Of a stretch of 64,000 bases of DNA, positions 34,699 through 61,694 are shown piece by piece. The notes below the pieces were generated by a model that was not told where the DNA came from, did not search any database, and worked only from the letters and a program-made list of their open reading frames with translations. Position 1 is the stretch's first letter. Every line of letters begins with the position of its first letter. The translations under genes were made by a program, and so were the position numbers. The stretch is taken from the IMG/VR virus record IMGVR_UViG_3300032053_018320; one strand, given 5' to 3'. This DNA comes from an uncultured virus (IMG/VR IMGVR_UViG_3300032053_018320). Lineage: Duplodnaviria; Heunggongvirae; Uroviricota; Caudoviricetes.

Positions 34699-35166
34699 TC
34701 AATATTTGATATTCTCATGAACGTCGAATGGTATCTTTTTTCCATCGATCGTGATATGAAACTGACCATTGAGTATAAACGTTTTTTTAACGTTAGTTTC
34801 TGTCGATCTCAAGACTTGTTGCATTCGTTCAATCACGATTGCTGATGATATATCTTCAACGGAATAAAAGACGCCACCAGAATTGTAAATGAATTCTATT
34901 TTATACGTTTCGTCAGTAACGATCAGTTTGATCGTGAAATAGCTGTTTGGGTATTTTTCTGTTGTTTTTTCGATGATGTCGTGGATTTCGCTTGGAGTCA
35001 CGGCAAAAGTTGCTGTATATCTACCATTACCGTCTGGATCGATGGGTCGAGCATCTTCTACATCGTATGGCACCCGTCGAAACGAAGCATCGACAGCGTT
35101 CCAAAAATCATCTGCTTTTTTCTCTAACCCAACAGGACAGACATCTTCTTCGCTCATGATGATCAC
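34699..35166 (-). CDS. Hypothetical protein, paralogue of 35173..35628
   Basis: Shared EDA/SxP..D.NG, YKIEFI, FYS.E and IT.DGKK motifs. Confidence 0.8.
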   Translation of the reverse strand: MIIMSEEDVCPVGLEKKADDFWNAVDASFRRVPYDVEDARPIDPDGNGRYTATFAVTPSEIHDIIEKTTEKYPNSYFTIKLIVTDETYKIEFIYNSGGVFYSVEDISSAIVIERMQQVLRSTETNVKKTFILNGQFHITIDGKKIPFDVHENIKY

Positions 35167-35172
35167 GCATAT

Positions 35173-35628
35173 TTATTTTTCAATTTTTAAGTCGATGTCA
35201 AACGTTTTCTTTTTACCATCGAGCGTTATCGAATATTCGCCCTTTAGCAAAAGCGTTTCTTGATAATCGATATTATTTGATCCCAAGACTTGATCGACTT
35301 TCTTGAGCACGACATCTGGTGATTGACTCTCGATGGAGTAAAAGATGGAGTCATTACCATCGATGAATTCGATCTTATACGATAAATCGCTAACGATCAT
35401 CGTTATCCTAAAATCGCTATCGATTGCTTCACCCTCGCCTTTCATCAAATCGTCAAGATCACCTGGTGCAAGACTAAAGTATGCCCTAAACATTCCATTG
35501 TTATCTTCACTAACTGGCTGAGAATCTTCAATGGCAAATTCTGCATTATCGATGATCGTTCCTTCTAGTTCTTCATAGAAGTCATTTGCTTTATCTTCAA
35601 CGCTTGTTGAACACGATTCATTTGCCAT
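35173..35628 (-). CDS. Acidic hypothetical protein, paralogue of 34699..35166
   Basis: Aligns full-length with its neighbour. Confidence 0.8.
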   Translation of the reverse strand: MANESCSTSVEDKANDFYEELEGTIIDNAEFAIEDSQPVSEDNNGMFRAYFSLAPGDLDDLMKGEGEAIDSDFRITMIVSDLSYKIEFIDGNDSIFYSIESQSPDVVLKKVDQVLGSNNIDYQETLLLKGEYSITLDGKKKTFDIDLKIEK

Positions 35629-35632
35629 TTTG

Positions 35633-36105
35633 TCTCAATCCTCGTCTTCATCGTTTTTATGTGCTCGGATATAGTGGAGTTCTTCGTCTGAGTCGCCTTC
35701 CTTCTCACACTCATCGTCTTCATCGATCTCTTCTTCATCGTTGTCAGATTCACAACTTTCGCTCACCTGATCGATGAAATCGGAGAGCCACTTCACATCG
35801 AGATTGATATTCTTGATTCGCCATATCGAGAGTTTGCCGACATCCGTATCGTCAATGGGAAATAGTAAGCAGGTGATAGTCGACATAGTTGGGTGATTGA
35901 ATTTCCACACAAATGAAAACTGAAAATCATCTGCTACTATCTTGTCGTTTTTGAGCATCTGGGTTATTCCATCGACCCACCGGTTGAGATCGCCACCACA
36001 GCCAGAGAAGACCATTGCATCGTGTTTTTTACCGAACGCTTCGATGTCGGCAAACGTTTTCTGTTCTATCGTGGGCATAGGTTCTCAATCCTCGTCTTCA
36101 TCGTT
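35633..36105. repeat. 23-bp perfect direct repeat bracketing gene 35635..36078
   Basis: TCTCAATCCTCGTCTTCATCGTT at 35633-35655 and 36083-36105. Confidence 0.85.
35635..36078 (-). CDS. Hypothetical protein with acidic tail
   Basis: GCGGDLNRWVDGI core; D/E-rich tail. Confidence 0.75.
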   Translation of the reverse strand: MPTIEQKTFADIEAFGKKHDAMVFSGCGGDLNRWVDGITQMLKNDKIVADDFQFSFVWKFNHPTMSTITCLLFPIDDTDVGKLSIWRIKNINLDVKWLSDFIDQVSESCESDNDEEEIDEDDECEKEGDSDEELHYIRAHKNDEDED

Positions 36106-36378
36106 GTCTTCTTCAACAGTTTTGCAACCCTCGCTTTCATCCATCTTGTCGATGTCATCGTAGACATCATCGAGGGTTTCTCCACCAAGGAAGCCATAGT
36201 CTTGGGCAGTTACTGCCTTGATATGATCCAAGATATACGCCCGATACGAACGAACATCCAGGTTGGCTTTATCCATTTCATCGAGCAAGTTTTCAAGGTC
36301 GTCTATACCTTCTTTCAATTCATCAACGACTTTATCCAGTCGCTTGATCAAGTGTTGTTTTAATGTTGGCATATTCAT
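36085..36378 (-). CDS. Small helical acidic protein, paralogue of 36375..36722
   Basis: Shared LLDE/DLDK..RS.R.Y.L.H.KA.T..DYGF. Confidence 0.8.
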   Translation of the reverse strand: MNMPTLKQHLIKRLDKVVDELKEGIDDLENLLDEMDKANLDVRSYRAYILDHIKAVTAQDYGFLGGETLDDVYDDIDKMDESEGCKTVEEDNDEDED

Positions 36379-36722
36379 TCATCGTCGTCTTCGTTGTCTT
36401 CATCAGTTTCGCAAGTCTCTTCATCGTCCAGTTCTTTATCGATCGCTTCATATATCTTATCGATAGTTTCATTCTCGATGAATCCATAATCGTCCGATGT
36501 ATATGCTTTCAAATGATTGAGCACGTATACCCTAAATGAACGGGTATCAATGTGCATCTTGTCCAAATCATCGAGCAATTGTTCAAGACTACCAATACCC
36601 GTCTTCAGTGTTTCGATGATATTATCGACCCGTCGAAGCAGTTGTTGTTTTTTACTCATCGTTATAGTCACCATTTCATTCGTCGTTGTTACACGATCCA
36701 TGAGCAGACATATCGTCGTCAT
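36375..36722 (-). CDS. Small helical acidic protein, paralogue of 36085..36378
   Basis: Likely start near MSKKQQ; aligns with its neighbour. Confidence 0.8.
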   Translation of the reverse strand: MTTICLLMDRVTTTNEMVTITMSKKQQLLRRVDNIIETLKTGIGSLEQLLDDLDKMHIDTRSFRVYVLNHLKAYTSDDYGFIENETIDKIYEAIDKELDDEETCETDEDNEDDDE

Positions 36723-36975
36723 ATTCTTGTTGTGCTTGTTTCATCAAATCATACTCAAGTTCAGCGAGAACTGTGAACCGCAGATATATTTTGTTGAGTA
36801 TCTGCTTGAATCCATGATCGAGTTCGTTGGACATTTCGTTACCAGTATAATCAACAGTTATAGTAACGGTGTCAATTATCTCTGGTATCTTCGTGCTTGA
36901 ATGTCCGCGTTCCACGATGACATATGAAAAAGTTTGTTGCATATATATCGAACATCTAATTGGGTAATAGATCAT
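36676..36975 (-). CDS. Hypothetical protein
   Basis: Likely start MQQTFS downstream of the TATA box at about 36976-36990. Confidence 0.5.
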   Translation of the reverse strand: MIYYPIRCSIYMQQTFSYVIVERGHSSTKIPEIIDTVTITVDYTGNEMSNELDHGFKQILNKIYLRFTVLAELEYDLMKQAQQEYDDDMSAHGSCNNDE

Positions 36976-37060
36976 TTAAAGATTTTTATCGTTGAAAATA
37001 CTGGTTCATTAGGCAAACTCACCCAAAAACTTTAAAAGGAGATGGTGATAATAAAGATGT

Positions 37061-37196
37061 ATATCAACAGCCAAAAACTCGATTCGCAAGATCGAGTTTC
37101 GGCGGTGACAGTGATGAAAGGAGTAATCAACGGACTCCAGATTTCAATCATCGAAGATTGATCTCTTACTCCTTTCACCCTTTATTTAAACCTTTT
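37061..37196 (+). ncRNA. Putative structured small RNA, copy 1
   Basis: TATA starts 30 nt upstream; stems 37075-83/37091-99 and 37115-26/37166-77; architecture shared with copy 2. Confidence 0.6.
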
Positions 37197-37286
37197 GGAC
37201 GATACGTTACAGCAGATAGTTTCGTTGAATGCGTGATTGCTAAATGCTATAGTTTCAAGAAAGTAGGTTGTTAAATTGGTAACTTT

Positions 37287-37814
37287 TTAGAAAGCGCAGT
37301 CGGAATGATCTTCTTTCGTCAGCATCGAACCATCCAACTCACCATAGCCCCATTTATTGATGGTGACATAGGCGGGTTTTCCGACCATCGTGGTTCGTTG
37401 AAATTCAAGGATCGTGTCACGAGCCTTCTCTGGCGGTTGTAAGTCATTGATGTCCTGGACTTCCGGACGTATCATGGATGGATACTGCGGATATTGTGAA
37501 TGTGGGTAGAAATTGACACATCTATCGTCAATATGAACGATGGTCGTCATCACGGCGACATTACACGCAATACACGCCAAGGATCGATGTCGACCTTCGT
37601 GACCAGTAACAACACCTTTCATATCGATCCACAACGATGGTATTGTTATCGGACGATCATTCTTGATCGCGGTGATGAGTGCATCGATCGTGCTTTTTGT
37701 CGGATCACGGAGATCAGTGGCAACACGAAGAAAGTCATACGGATCGACTAAACAGAGGATATCTTTATACCATCGACCAGAATATAATCCACTAAGATTC
37801 GGTATCATCTGCAA
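37287..37814 (-). CDS. ParB/Sulfiredoxin-like N-terminal domain protein
   Basis: L..AI...PI..P.L....VTGHEGRHR resembles the ParB/Srx GxxR motif; three GGTGA motifs upstream. Confidence 0.65.
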   Translation of the reverse strand: MQMIPNLSGLYSGRWYKDILCLVDPYDFLRVATDLRDPTKSTIDALITAIKNDRPITIPSLWIDMKGVVTGHEGRHRSLACIACNVAVMTTIVHIDDRCVNFYPHSQYPQYPSMIRPEVQDINDLQPPEKARDTILEFQRTTMVGKPAYVTINKWGYGELDGSMLTKEDHSDCAF

Positions 37815-37892
37815 GAAAATTCACCATTCTCACCAATTTCACCGGTTAAAATGAGCGAAACCCTTAAGAATGAAAGGAAAGTAATAGAATAC

Positions 37893-38027
37893 ATATCAAC
37901 AGTCTTGATAATCGGTCACAACACCGAAGATCAAGGCAGTGACAGTCGGAAAGAGAAGAGCACCGGCTTCGGGAATTGATAAGCAACTTATTGATTCCTT
38001 CTTCTCTTACTGCTTATTTAAACATTT
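37893..38027 (+). ncRNA. Putative structured small RNA, copy 2
   Basis: Same anchors (ATATCAACAG, GTGACAGT, TTATTTAAAC) and same end-to-end spacing; different but still pairing stems with G-U on the + strand. Confidence 0.6.
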
Positions 38028-38102
38028 CCATGACACATTACGCGAGTCTTGTTTAGCAAGTGCTGATCGAATCTCATTGAAAAGAAAAAAGTAGGTGGTA
38101 AA

Positions 38103-59559: not shown

Positions 59560-60860
59560 TCGTCATCACTATCAGTTTCGGTTTCGGTTTTGTTGGTTTC
59601 CTTCTCTTCTTCGTCTTGTTTCAATTTAACACGAGGATATTGCGGTCGCAAGCCTTTTAACGGAGAAACAGGTATACCGAACGCTATTAATCCCCACACA
59701 TAATCAGTATCTGTCTTGAATTTAAGCGCTTCTGCCTTCGTTAAAATATCAAACGAGTCTCTTATTTGACTAACATTATCATAATACGTTAACAAATTAT
59801 TCGCTATATAGAACATCAACGTTGTCGGCGATAAGTATGTTTCGTCACACAACATTTCGTATAACTCATCTCGATCATCCATCGTGAAGACGAGATATGT
59901 GAACTCCATTGGCTTATGCACTTCAACAATATCGAATGATTCCCCACCAACGAGCATATGCTTCGCAGTTCTAACATCTCCACGGGAATCTACGATGAAT
60001 TGCTTGATTTGATCCGTCGTCGGGGCGAGAGCAACATCGAACTCCGGCTCTGGTGAATCGAAATACTTAAGTGAATACAGTTCCATTAGACTTTGTAATT
60101 CATACTTCTCTGGATGATCAAATTTGATCAATGTTACTCGATCATTTGAACGAATACGAATATCCACTCTGTCAATGAAGTTACAAATCATGACGATTGG
60201 AACACGAGATCGTTTTGATAACTTTCCGATGAATGTTTTTGCAGCATTCGTTAATGTTTTCTTTTCTTGGTCGATACCAATAATTGCTTGTTGACACTCC
60301 TTCAAACTAGGACCGATCAAGTCGATCAAATAATTCGTTCCCGTCTTTGATAAATTATCCATTTCGTCGAATACGAGCAACGGTGGATCGCCAGACAACG
60401 ACATCATTTTGCCAGCACCACTGATCGTTTTCAACATTTCAGTTAAAGTTCTCGTGTCAGATGCGTTGATTTGAGTCATCGCGAACCATCGTTTCATCCT
60501 CGTGATAAACGATGTTTTTCCGACTCCAGCATCGCCATAGAGAAGGATATGTTTCCGTGACTCAATTTTCTTATTTGCGATCATGACTTCGTCGATTCCA
60601 CTTTTTGTGAGCAAAATATCAAGTATCATCGTTTTCTGAGCATAATTACCGACGTGAACATCGTCTGCAAATTCCGGATCGGTCTCTATGACTATTTTAC
60701 GAATGATATGCTCTGCCAACTTTGGATATTTGAGTAACAACGCATTAATCATCGTATCCTCGATTATTTTGTTGTCACGGCAATAAAGATAAAAATCACC
60801 CTTATCAACTGCTGACAATGCGTCAGTTAACCTTGGATCATTTGGCTTAACTACAGACAT
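59556..60860 (-). CDS. rfcL: Replication factor C large-subunit-like AAA+ ATPase
   Basis: LLYGDAGVGKTS, INASDTR, DEMDNL, PIVMICN, RGDVR; coupled to rfcS. Confidence 0.8.
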   Translation of the reverse strand: MSVVKPNDPRLTDALSAVDKGDFYLYCRDNKIIEDTMINALLLKYPKLAEHIIRKIVIETDPEFADDVHVGNYAQKTMILDILLTKSGIDEVMIANKKIESRKHILLYGDAGVGKTSFITRMKRWFAMTQINASDTRTLTEMLKTISGAGKMMSLSGDPPLLVFDEMDNLSKTGTNYLIDLIGPSLKECQQAIIGIDQEKKTLTNAAKTFIGKLSKRSRVPIVMICNFIDRVDIRIRSNDRVTLIKFDHPEKYELQSLMELYSLKYFDSPEPEFDVALAPTTDQIKQFIVDSRGDVRTAKHMLVGGESFDIVEVHKPMEFTYLVFTMDDRDELYEMLCDETYLSPTTLMFYIANNLLTYYDNVSQIRDSFDILTKAEALKFKTDTDYVWGLIAFGIPVSPLKGLRPQYPRVKLKQDEEEKETNKTETETDSDDE

Positions 60861-61230
60861 TTAACCACCGACGATCATAAACATATCATGCACAATATAA
60901 AAGTTTTTCCCATATTGATTGCTCATGGACTATCCATGAATGGTTCATGAGCGAATTGTGCTGATACTACAAAACGCTGTCACGACTTACCCATCATTAT
61001 ACGTTAAAAAGACGAAAGACGATCCCTCACACGATTCACCGATCAGTCTCACTGAACGGTCGATGAATATAAAAAGAACGGAATTGCTAATCCGTTCATT
61101 GACGATAATTTAAGCGAAATTCAAACCTTCATGGAAAGTATTGACCACGAAACCAAGTATGAAAAAGAGGGGTTTGGGCTTGTCGGTGGTTTGGGTCATT
61201 TTAACTCTAAGGGAATGAACGAATCAATCA

Positions 61231-61247
61231 TTTTTAAAGGTTTCGTT
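61231..61247 (-). promoter_or_regulatory. Archaeal BRE-TATA promoter
   Basis: Minus strand AACGAAACCTTTAAAAA. Confidence 0.5.
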
Positions 61248-61391
61248 ATAGACGCTATTATACAGCAACACAACATTCTGACAAAAGGATTTGATTAACT
61301 CGTGAACCCGTGAATATTGGTATAATTCTGTGTAATGATTAAAATAGGTGATAGGACGTCGGACGAAATGAAAAAACAAATGATTGACGAA

Positions 61392-61694
61392 TCACGAACA
61401 CGTTGTTTCCTTAGCCACCATATCCTTTGCAGCGGAAACCATTTCAGTGAGCGTTTTTACGCTACACTCAGCCAATGCTACGCCGTCAAATTCTACATCT
61501 TCGGATTCAGTTGGTCCAATGATGCCATTTTCAACGAATACTCCTAATAAGATCAATCCACGAGCGACAAGAGCAGGTTCTTTATCACAGACCATATCAA
61601 ACAATCGTTGTTGTAGGTCTTGGTCCCTATCGTGGTTTTCTTGATATTCCTTGACGAGTTGTTCGATTTCGTCGATCAATGTTTGTTTTGACAT
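61392..61694 (-). CDS. Hypothetical protein
   Basis: 100-aa ORF. Confidence 0.65.
   Translation of the reverse strand: MSKQTLIDEIEQLVKEYQENHDRDQDLQQRLFDMVCDKEPALVARGLILLGVFVENGIIGPTESEDVEFDGVALAECSVKTLTEMVSAAKDMVAKETTCS

Follow-up and report, generated by a model that had tools for sequence, protein, structure and literature searches.

What are the two structured elements that flank a small ParB/Srx-fold gene in an uncultured sediment virus, and what might they do for it? The window, by which is meant the whole 64,000-nucleotide stretch analysed here, covers the opening 64 kb of a virus record of 147,232 bp, of provirus class and ~69% complete, across which promoters are of archaeal type. 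Inspection of its open reading frames (ORFs) presumably identifies replication and nucleotide genes, most of them named from the sequences themselves, the ligase among them via Pfam. The virus occurs in sediment metagenomes, where 3 of the 10 listed runs hold at least half of the sampled words and one of those three is possibly the source of the record; its protein relatives lie at 48-58% (P0004-P0006), besides P0007. Elsewhere in the full record, ORFs resembling folE, queE and queD of the deazaguanine pathway were named by eye at 94,980-96,823, and two tandem tRNA matches lie at 116,637-116,800, of which ARAGORN gave the second alone, as tRNA-Ile(GAT). A 530-nt stretch of the window at 60860-61392 lacks any 70-aa ORF, carries a strong minus-strand box at 61238 and includes a long palindromic hairpin near 60,910-60,965.

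The first part of the answer is that this is a real, undescribed, duplicated structured element. Each copy is 131 nt long (copy 1, 37061-37191; copy 2, 37893-38023), their global alignment scores 96 against a maximum of 56 among 2994 random genomic pairs, and the copies are true paralogues. On the + strand they fold with z scores of -4.76 and -5.27, respectively, with 0 of 200 shuffles as good. The initial annotation had described a fixed geometry, with a TATA-like box 30 nt before the first anchor and the last anchor 121 nt after it, and had named five stems; the geometry holds in both copies and all five stems pair. Its view that the copies are alike only in short anchors was too narrow, as they also have in common the H1 apex (4 of 5 pairs identical, with CAA in the loop), the CAMCGG bulge and ATTGAT. 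RNA 1, predicted from pair probabilities and z scores of -4.3 to -4.8 at 37061-37186 on the + strand with a presumptive 3' end, would comprise a 5' tail, H1 (37070-37103), the linker anchor, the 12-bp stem P3 (37115-37126/37166-37177), a bulge, P4 (37144-37161) and a U-rich end. RNA 2, predicted at 37893-38018 (+; z -5.1 to -5.3), has the same architecture, with H1 at 37902-37937, P3 at 37951-37959/38000-38008 and P4 at 37971-37999.

Pairing is conserved between the copies, being kept in 3/3 pairs at the base of H1, in 5/5 at its top (one double change) and in 7/9 of P4 (two double changes). In P3 it is kept in 9/9, five of them changed on both sides and none broken, in agreement with the earlier statement that the stems diverge in sequence yet pair. 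Such counts lean towards structure, because the helix registers were set by hand from words common to both copies, and the basis for covariation is two paralogues and one contig of depth 2.7; the weight of the finding is limited accordingly by two copies and one variant. When the whole genome was scanned coarsely for folding, in 130-nt windows at steps of 40, copy 2 ranked ninth on the + strand and copy 1 was not among the top 15; stability alone is therefore not unique, and paired conservation is the stronger signal.

Relatives of the element were sought widely. That it resembles no known RNA family was borne out, with 0 Rfam matches in the window at the gathering threshold and a best row of E 0.41 and 21 bits against the 55.8 needed. 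No third copy was found in the genome, including by the covariance-model search that had been proposed, in which the model of the two copies had poor structure because its alignment was out of register. Anchor patterns gave 1, 16 and 96 loci in viral contigs, none with the architecture (all 16, and the best 14 of 76 distinct matches), and the single locus, which falls inside a tail gene, was rejected. In metagenomes (23 of 64 parts of the collection) there were 119 loci, none of them real among the best 30 of 107 distinct matches; species genomes gave 0 matches to a strict three-anchor pattern, and phage records only two 26-nt chance rows. A profile from the hand alignment, run over the genome and all 232 loci, had its best outside match at E 0.0095 in a coding-like stretch. 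By eye, against the known motifs, attC, dif, SECIS, K-turns, hammerhead, pistol and hatchet ribozymes, SAM-I and FMN riboswitches, Y RNA, SRP, RNase P and CRISPR repeats were all rejected. A separate gene-free gap at ~100,950-101,165 of the full record has facing promoter-like boxes (100953+, 101160-) and folds on the + strand at z -2.85 and not on the minus; it matches neither the two-copy profile nor, at the gathering threshold, Rfam.

Promoters supply the second part of the answer. TTTAAATA is the genome's TATA box, with 14 of its 19 occurrences intergenic against 9.5% intergenic DNA, and the last anchor proves to be this box on the minus strand, with an initiator. Since the 3' anchor is a minus-strand TATA box, each copy forms a putative convergent promoter pair, pointing to cis-antisense control. 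The reverse TATA box is conserved at 10/10 positions between the copies, and the facing boxes lie exactly 159 nt apart in both, though the inner segments differ by 2 nt, which counts in favour of such control. A BRE+TATA matrix from 58 training sites in 121 upstream regions, with the two-copy locus excluded, ranked 294,426 positions, and a stricter matrix, retrained with an initiator term, ranked 294,344. The copy-1 + strand BRE and TATA-like box (37022-37038; box 37031-37038) ranked 17 and, with the initiator, 55, among the strongest in the genome, with no + strand ORF for 12.5 kb. On the minus strand, the TATA box and BRE of copy 1 (37183-37199; box 37190-37183) ranked 131 and 88, and those of copy 2 (38015-38031; box 38022-38015) 88 and 48; the + strand pair of copy 2 (37854-37870; box 37863-37870) was weaker, at 401 and 745. 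All four boxes match the genome's promoter pattern.

Counted from the start of the box in 41 promoters, the genome's initiator has T at position 28 (25/41), a pyrimidine at 29 (25/41) and a purine at 30 (34/41), and the copy-2 minus box is followed by TCA as initiator, at +28 to +30. This puts the predicted + starts at 37061 and 37893, where the first anchor of each copy has its first A, and the predicted minus starts at ~37159 and 37992, on TCA exactly in copy 2 and one base late in copy 1; the predicted transcripts overlap by 99 and 100 nt, respectively. Three common anchors coincide with promoter parts (+ initiator, minus initiator and minus TATA box), which also counts for antisense control. 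Several observations weigh on the other side: the copy-2 + box scores poorly (rank 401-745), and at position 28 copy 1 has G, which none of the 41 training promoters has. Nor does a high matrix rank say much by itself, as 26 strong boxes in the genome lack an ORF within 300 nt. The four spacers have purine contents of 0.75-0.9 against a training maximum of 0.7. Genome-wide, 25 facing box pairs 110-230 nt apart score above 6, most of them in coding DNA, and the copy-2 pair is below that cut.

The reading preferred here, with a probability of roughly 0.45, is that each copy is a duplicated cis-antisense RNA switch: because each sits between facing promoter-like sites, it is likely a small RNA that would bind and dampen the message from the opposite strand by base pairing. 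A host-type RNA polymerase would make a structured + RNA of ~125 nt, from the first anchor to the U-rich tail, and the minus transcript would begin ~100 nt beyond the + start. The initial ~100 nt of the minus transcript would then have their full complement in the + RNA, which would continue across the minus promoter. Dampening might act through the duplex, by cleavage or by early termination at T tracts just past the overlap, or alternatively through promoter interference. The target of copy 2 would be the ParB/Srx-fold gene's mRNA; that of copy 1, a short minus RNA or read-through into downstream small genes. On the sequence evidence, then, the element most likely belongs to an antisense module with convergent promoters and is its + strand small RNA; transcription of either strand, the RNA ends, and the direction and mode of control are what we infer.

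The predicted folds have the single-stranded 5' tail, structure and U-rich end that characterise countertranscripts. Cognate duplexes are computed at -189 and -196 kcal/mol and cross duplexes at -69 and -65 kcal/mol, the cognate strength being true by construction, and with cognate pairing so far above cross pairing the two switches could act independently. On the side of copy 2, a 13-nt pyrimidine/U tract (38079-38091, minus) right after the upstream gene's stop is likely the terminator of the ligase operon. Archaeal transcription termination at oligo-U is established, and the tract suggests that the ParB-like gene needs the promoter at 38022, which is the sole minus box scoring >4 between the tract and the ParB-like ATG and so counts for the switch. 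From there a 184-nt leader of the ParB-like mRNA is predicted (37809-37992, minus), its first 100 nt complementary to RNA 2; 37815-37845 of the window holds, on the minus strand upstream of the ParB-like ATG, three GGTGA motifs at 9-nt spacing within a weak hairpin (z -2.2). Against the switch, the overlap stops ~80 nt short of the ParB-like ribosome-binding region. On the side of copy 1, the target is less certain because the gene downstream has its own box at 36980 (promoter-like region 36973-36989, minus; score 12.6, rank 68 with the initiator). The listed start of this 99-aa ORF, 36975, sits inside that TATA-like box, so its true start is probably 36942 or later. Directly downstream of copy 1, at 34699-36942 (minus), lie small genes with acidic tails, some of them paralogous pairs, for which no convincing family match was found.

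Strain variation also bears on the switch. Contigs of run X4 show 44 differences over 439 nt of the gene, a single one over 151 nt of copy 2 and none over 151 nt of the 5' part of copy 1, a pattern counted in favour of the switch; another X4 contig, over 37109-37460, has 10 differences, reported without positions, and contigs of one run may stem from different strains. Over 37940-38070, 12 differences and 2 gaps separate the X3 contig (depth 2.7) from the record, and 8 of the 9 listed substitutions and both gaps fall in 37971-37991 with length unchanged. When paired by hand, its P4 is a 10-bp Watson-Crick hairpin with one bulge, in which two wobbles have become standard pairs and one A-U is flipped; the small CCG/CGG hairpin of copy 2 is absent. 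Runs X6 and X7 are identical to copy 2 where covered, and X8 has 3 differences within 37860-37903, the + promoter region. In run X2, a diverged patch at 36874-37020 (15 substitutions, 5 indels) ends just upstream of the copy-1 + promoter.

Which strand carries the fold is a question on which the initial annotation had been too categorical. It held that G-U pairs work only on the + strand; in the counted stems of copy 1, however, there is no G-U, and on the minus strand three A-C oppositions (37063:37109, 37074:37100 and 37895:37943) turn into G-U, one of them, in both copies, in the helix between the first two anchors. Conversely, four G-U pairs of copy 2 on the + strand are C-A mismatches on the minus strand and in DNA. 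Wobble pairs split between strands in this way are to be expected if both strands are RNAs, which counts for the switch. Minus-strand folding is better than + in copy 1 (-46.6 vs -41 kcal/mol; z -5.03) and worse in copy 2 (z -3.0), and a minus transcript truncated to begin at the minus box loses one P3 arm, its z scores being -3.4/-1.7, compared with -4.9/-5.8 for the full + strands. Since one of the two arms that P3 requires is located upstream of the minus start, only a + RNA or a read-through minus RNA can have the full fold. We read the + RNA as the probable main folded product, with the minus RNA probably also real. Of the proposal of an undescribed ncRNA class, then, the class itself is favoured by the lack of an Rfam match, the compensatory changes and the box and initiator at the first anchor, and an undescribed, structure-conserved non-coding element is most likely a + strand RNA; the guide role that went with it finds no such backing.

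That copy 1 folds best on the minus strand is also what one would expect of promoter-plus-stem-loop cassettes acting in cis, as hairpins for processing or stabilising minus-strand read-through mRNA, or as DNA cruciform or recombination sites bounding a one-gene cassette, after the manner of PeSL cassettes or HF2 repeats. Both copies lie between co-directional minus genes with a genome-type promoter, and they are direct repeats around one gene. We nevertheless consider this unlikely: the four + strand G-U pairs of copy 2 are lost on the minus strand and in DNA and two of them turn Watson-Crick in X3 (by hand), and the upstream U tract speaks against copy 2 being reached by read-through. PeSL cassettes of T4-type phages are repeated intergenic units with promoters; as against the many copies and gene exchange of a PeSL-like cassette, only two copies were found here, and in 7 distinct runs the repeats showed neither joint nor deletion, a weak observation given the short contigs.

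A message on the minus strand raises the possibility of a peptide. Minus transcript 1, predicted at 37025-37159 with a 99-nt overlap with RNA 1 (folding z -2.0), would reach T tracts at 37037 and 37029 and contains a 39-codon ORF (37032-37151, minus) with a hydrophobic C-terminus, which may be there by chance. In a type I toxin-antitoxin-like arrangement, the minus RNA would encode a small hydrophobic peptide and the + RNA would be the antitoxin; one minus frame indeed stays open through 49 codons of either copy and closes with a hydrophobic run at the same place, and in copy 1 an ATG 8 nt past the predicted start would give 39 aa. We hold this very improbable, as copy 2 lacks an in-frame ATG and hence a conserved ORF, the two copies read the linker anchor in different frames, a stop interrupts the copy-2 frame in the X3 variant (by hand), and the hydrophobic tail is explained by the U-rich complement of the + promoter spacer.

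The gene enclosed by the two copies (37287-37808, minus) encodes a stand-alone, 173-aa protein with a GHEGRHR motif, whose ParB/Srx fold is proposed from fold matches. Pfam, PHROG families and a PDB sequence search gave no match, and the protein is ParB_N-like in Atlas. A four-sequence model reached pLDDT 59.8 (single-sequence fold, 31), and its top PDB fold rows are ParB-N and Srx, with weak E-values (best 2.8e-3) for a mid-confidence model; a viral ParB/Srx fold matches at E 3e-4. Nearly all top fold matches being ParB/Srx, the original naming of the gene stands. Its G-x-x-R-type ParB/Srx motif is invariant in 4/4 sequences, and its relatives are two close variants and one at 45% (P0007), the only distant homologue. 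No HTH family was found in it and no ParA among the neighbours scanned. A parABS partition system was rejected, there being neither HTH nor adjacent parA and the elements being long imperfect folds, not short repeats; the protein is not a partition ParB. The RNAs had been suggested to act with this protein, and might serve it as guides or substrate adaptors; the enclosure of a gene whose fold is a nucleotide-binding ParB/Srx domain would suit such cofactors. Adjacency is, however, the sole link; neither RNA has a variable single-stranded segment of guide type with a target, no match elsewhere in the genome exceeding 14 nt, and by the geometry the gene is more naturally a target than a partner. 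A cofactor role seems very improbable. C/D and H/ACA guide RNAs were rejected on their box definitions, a C-box-like 7-mer being present in copy 1 only, with no D box and an internal ACA; Rfam snoRNA rows have E>4 and are located in the gene. Also rejected was an in-trans target before ORF 139823-140101, where the common 5' end pairs over 10-12 nt: no start region pairs better (-16 kcal/mol for copy 2), and the rough chance expectation is 0.04-0.2 over six segments. At 140,101-140,120 of the full record, over the stop codon before a small Cys-rich gene's ribosome-binding site, lies a 14-nt identity with the start of copy 2, probably by chance.

The antisense switch does not account for everything. 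Pure antisense RNAs need no conserved sequence, whereas the linker anchor, H1 apex and CAMCGG are common to the copies and are not promoter parts, so antisense alone is no full explanation. This conservation of single-stranded motifs beyond antisense needs makes the main rival a different one: that the + RNAs act in trans and on their own, as structured protein decoys or RNP scaffolds whose conserved single-stranded motifs bind a host or viral protein, like paired small RNAs of large DNA viruses, with the overlap of the minus promoter incidental. It would fit unpaired motifs (5' tail, ACAGU bulge, H1 loop, CAMCGG) conserved on a variable stem scaffold, as well as the strength of the copy-1 + box. 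It would also fit a helix between the linker anchor and 3' tail, which the two copies form in matching register and in which the one anchor base that varies is part of a G-C/A-U double change, but that helix costs 1.2-1.8 kcal/mol relative to a fold without it. The 10/10 conserved reverse TATA box with its well-placed initiator and the fixed 159-nt spacing are left unexplained, no candidate partner protein was identified, and we think such a role rather unlikely. The linker anchor has the 5' tail as an alternative pairing partner, and this choice between 5' and 3' tails keeps protein-binding and switch readings alive. Both could even be combined in a dual RNA, a protein- or ligand-binding structure and an antisense silencer across the facing promoter, in which binding of a factor would set expression of the ParB/Srx gene; the conserved 5' tail, ACAGU bulge and switchable linker helix may be cited for this, which we judge improbable.

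To our knowledge, few regulatory RNAs of archaeal viruses have been described. A literature search on Asgard viruses and RNA and on archaeal-virus antisense RNA found neither this element nor a regulatory RNA of Asgard-linked viruses. The antisense switch is a compact duplicated module, and its two facing promoter-like boxes and predicted starts make it directly testable in vitro and by reporter; if true, it would add a family of structure-conserved RNAs that Rfam lacks, and would open a route to studying the handling of RNA duplexes in archaea. Among plasmids, ColE1 RNA I is a countertranscript RNA of similar layout. Unlike plasmid countertranscripts, the virus elements have no identified adjacent rep gene or origin, archaeal promoters and no Rfam match, and the paralogues keep loop and linker motifs in common instead of diverging there. 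pMV158 RNAII (PMC4485353) is a countertranscript with a 5' tail, stem-loops and U-rich 3' end, and the predicted virus RNAs would be like it in full complementarity to a leader or 5' region from a facing promoter. Intergenic repeats of halovirus HF2 carry promoters, some active in both directions, and are sequence-conserved units of 29-58 bp; the virus elements differ in that two facing promoter-like boxes enclose a covarying fold of ~125 nt, the term 'stem-loop' being absent from the HF2 paper (PMC8707807). The SSV1 antisense RNAs, such as T3E, are small, proposed cis regulators and, like the RNAs predicted here, small antisense transcripts of an archaeal virus; T3E is antisense to a coding region, and the portion of the source covered (10.64898/2026.06.17.732947) describes no conserved paralogous structure. 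In halovirus phiH, Tant is described (PMC4284463) as a small RNA opposite the T1 transcript and a proposed trigger of cleavage; the RNAs of the present virus, here a prediction only, would differ from it in being heavily structured, duplicated and placed over a non-coding leader and an opposing promoter, and would resemble it as small RNAs of an archaeal virus made from the strand opposite a transcript.
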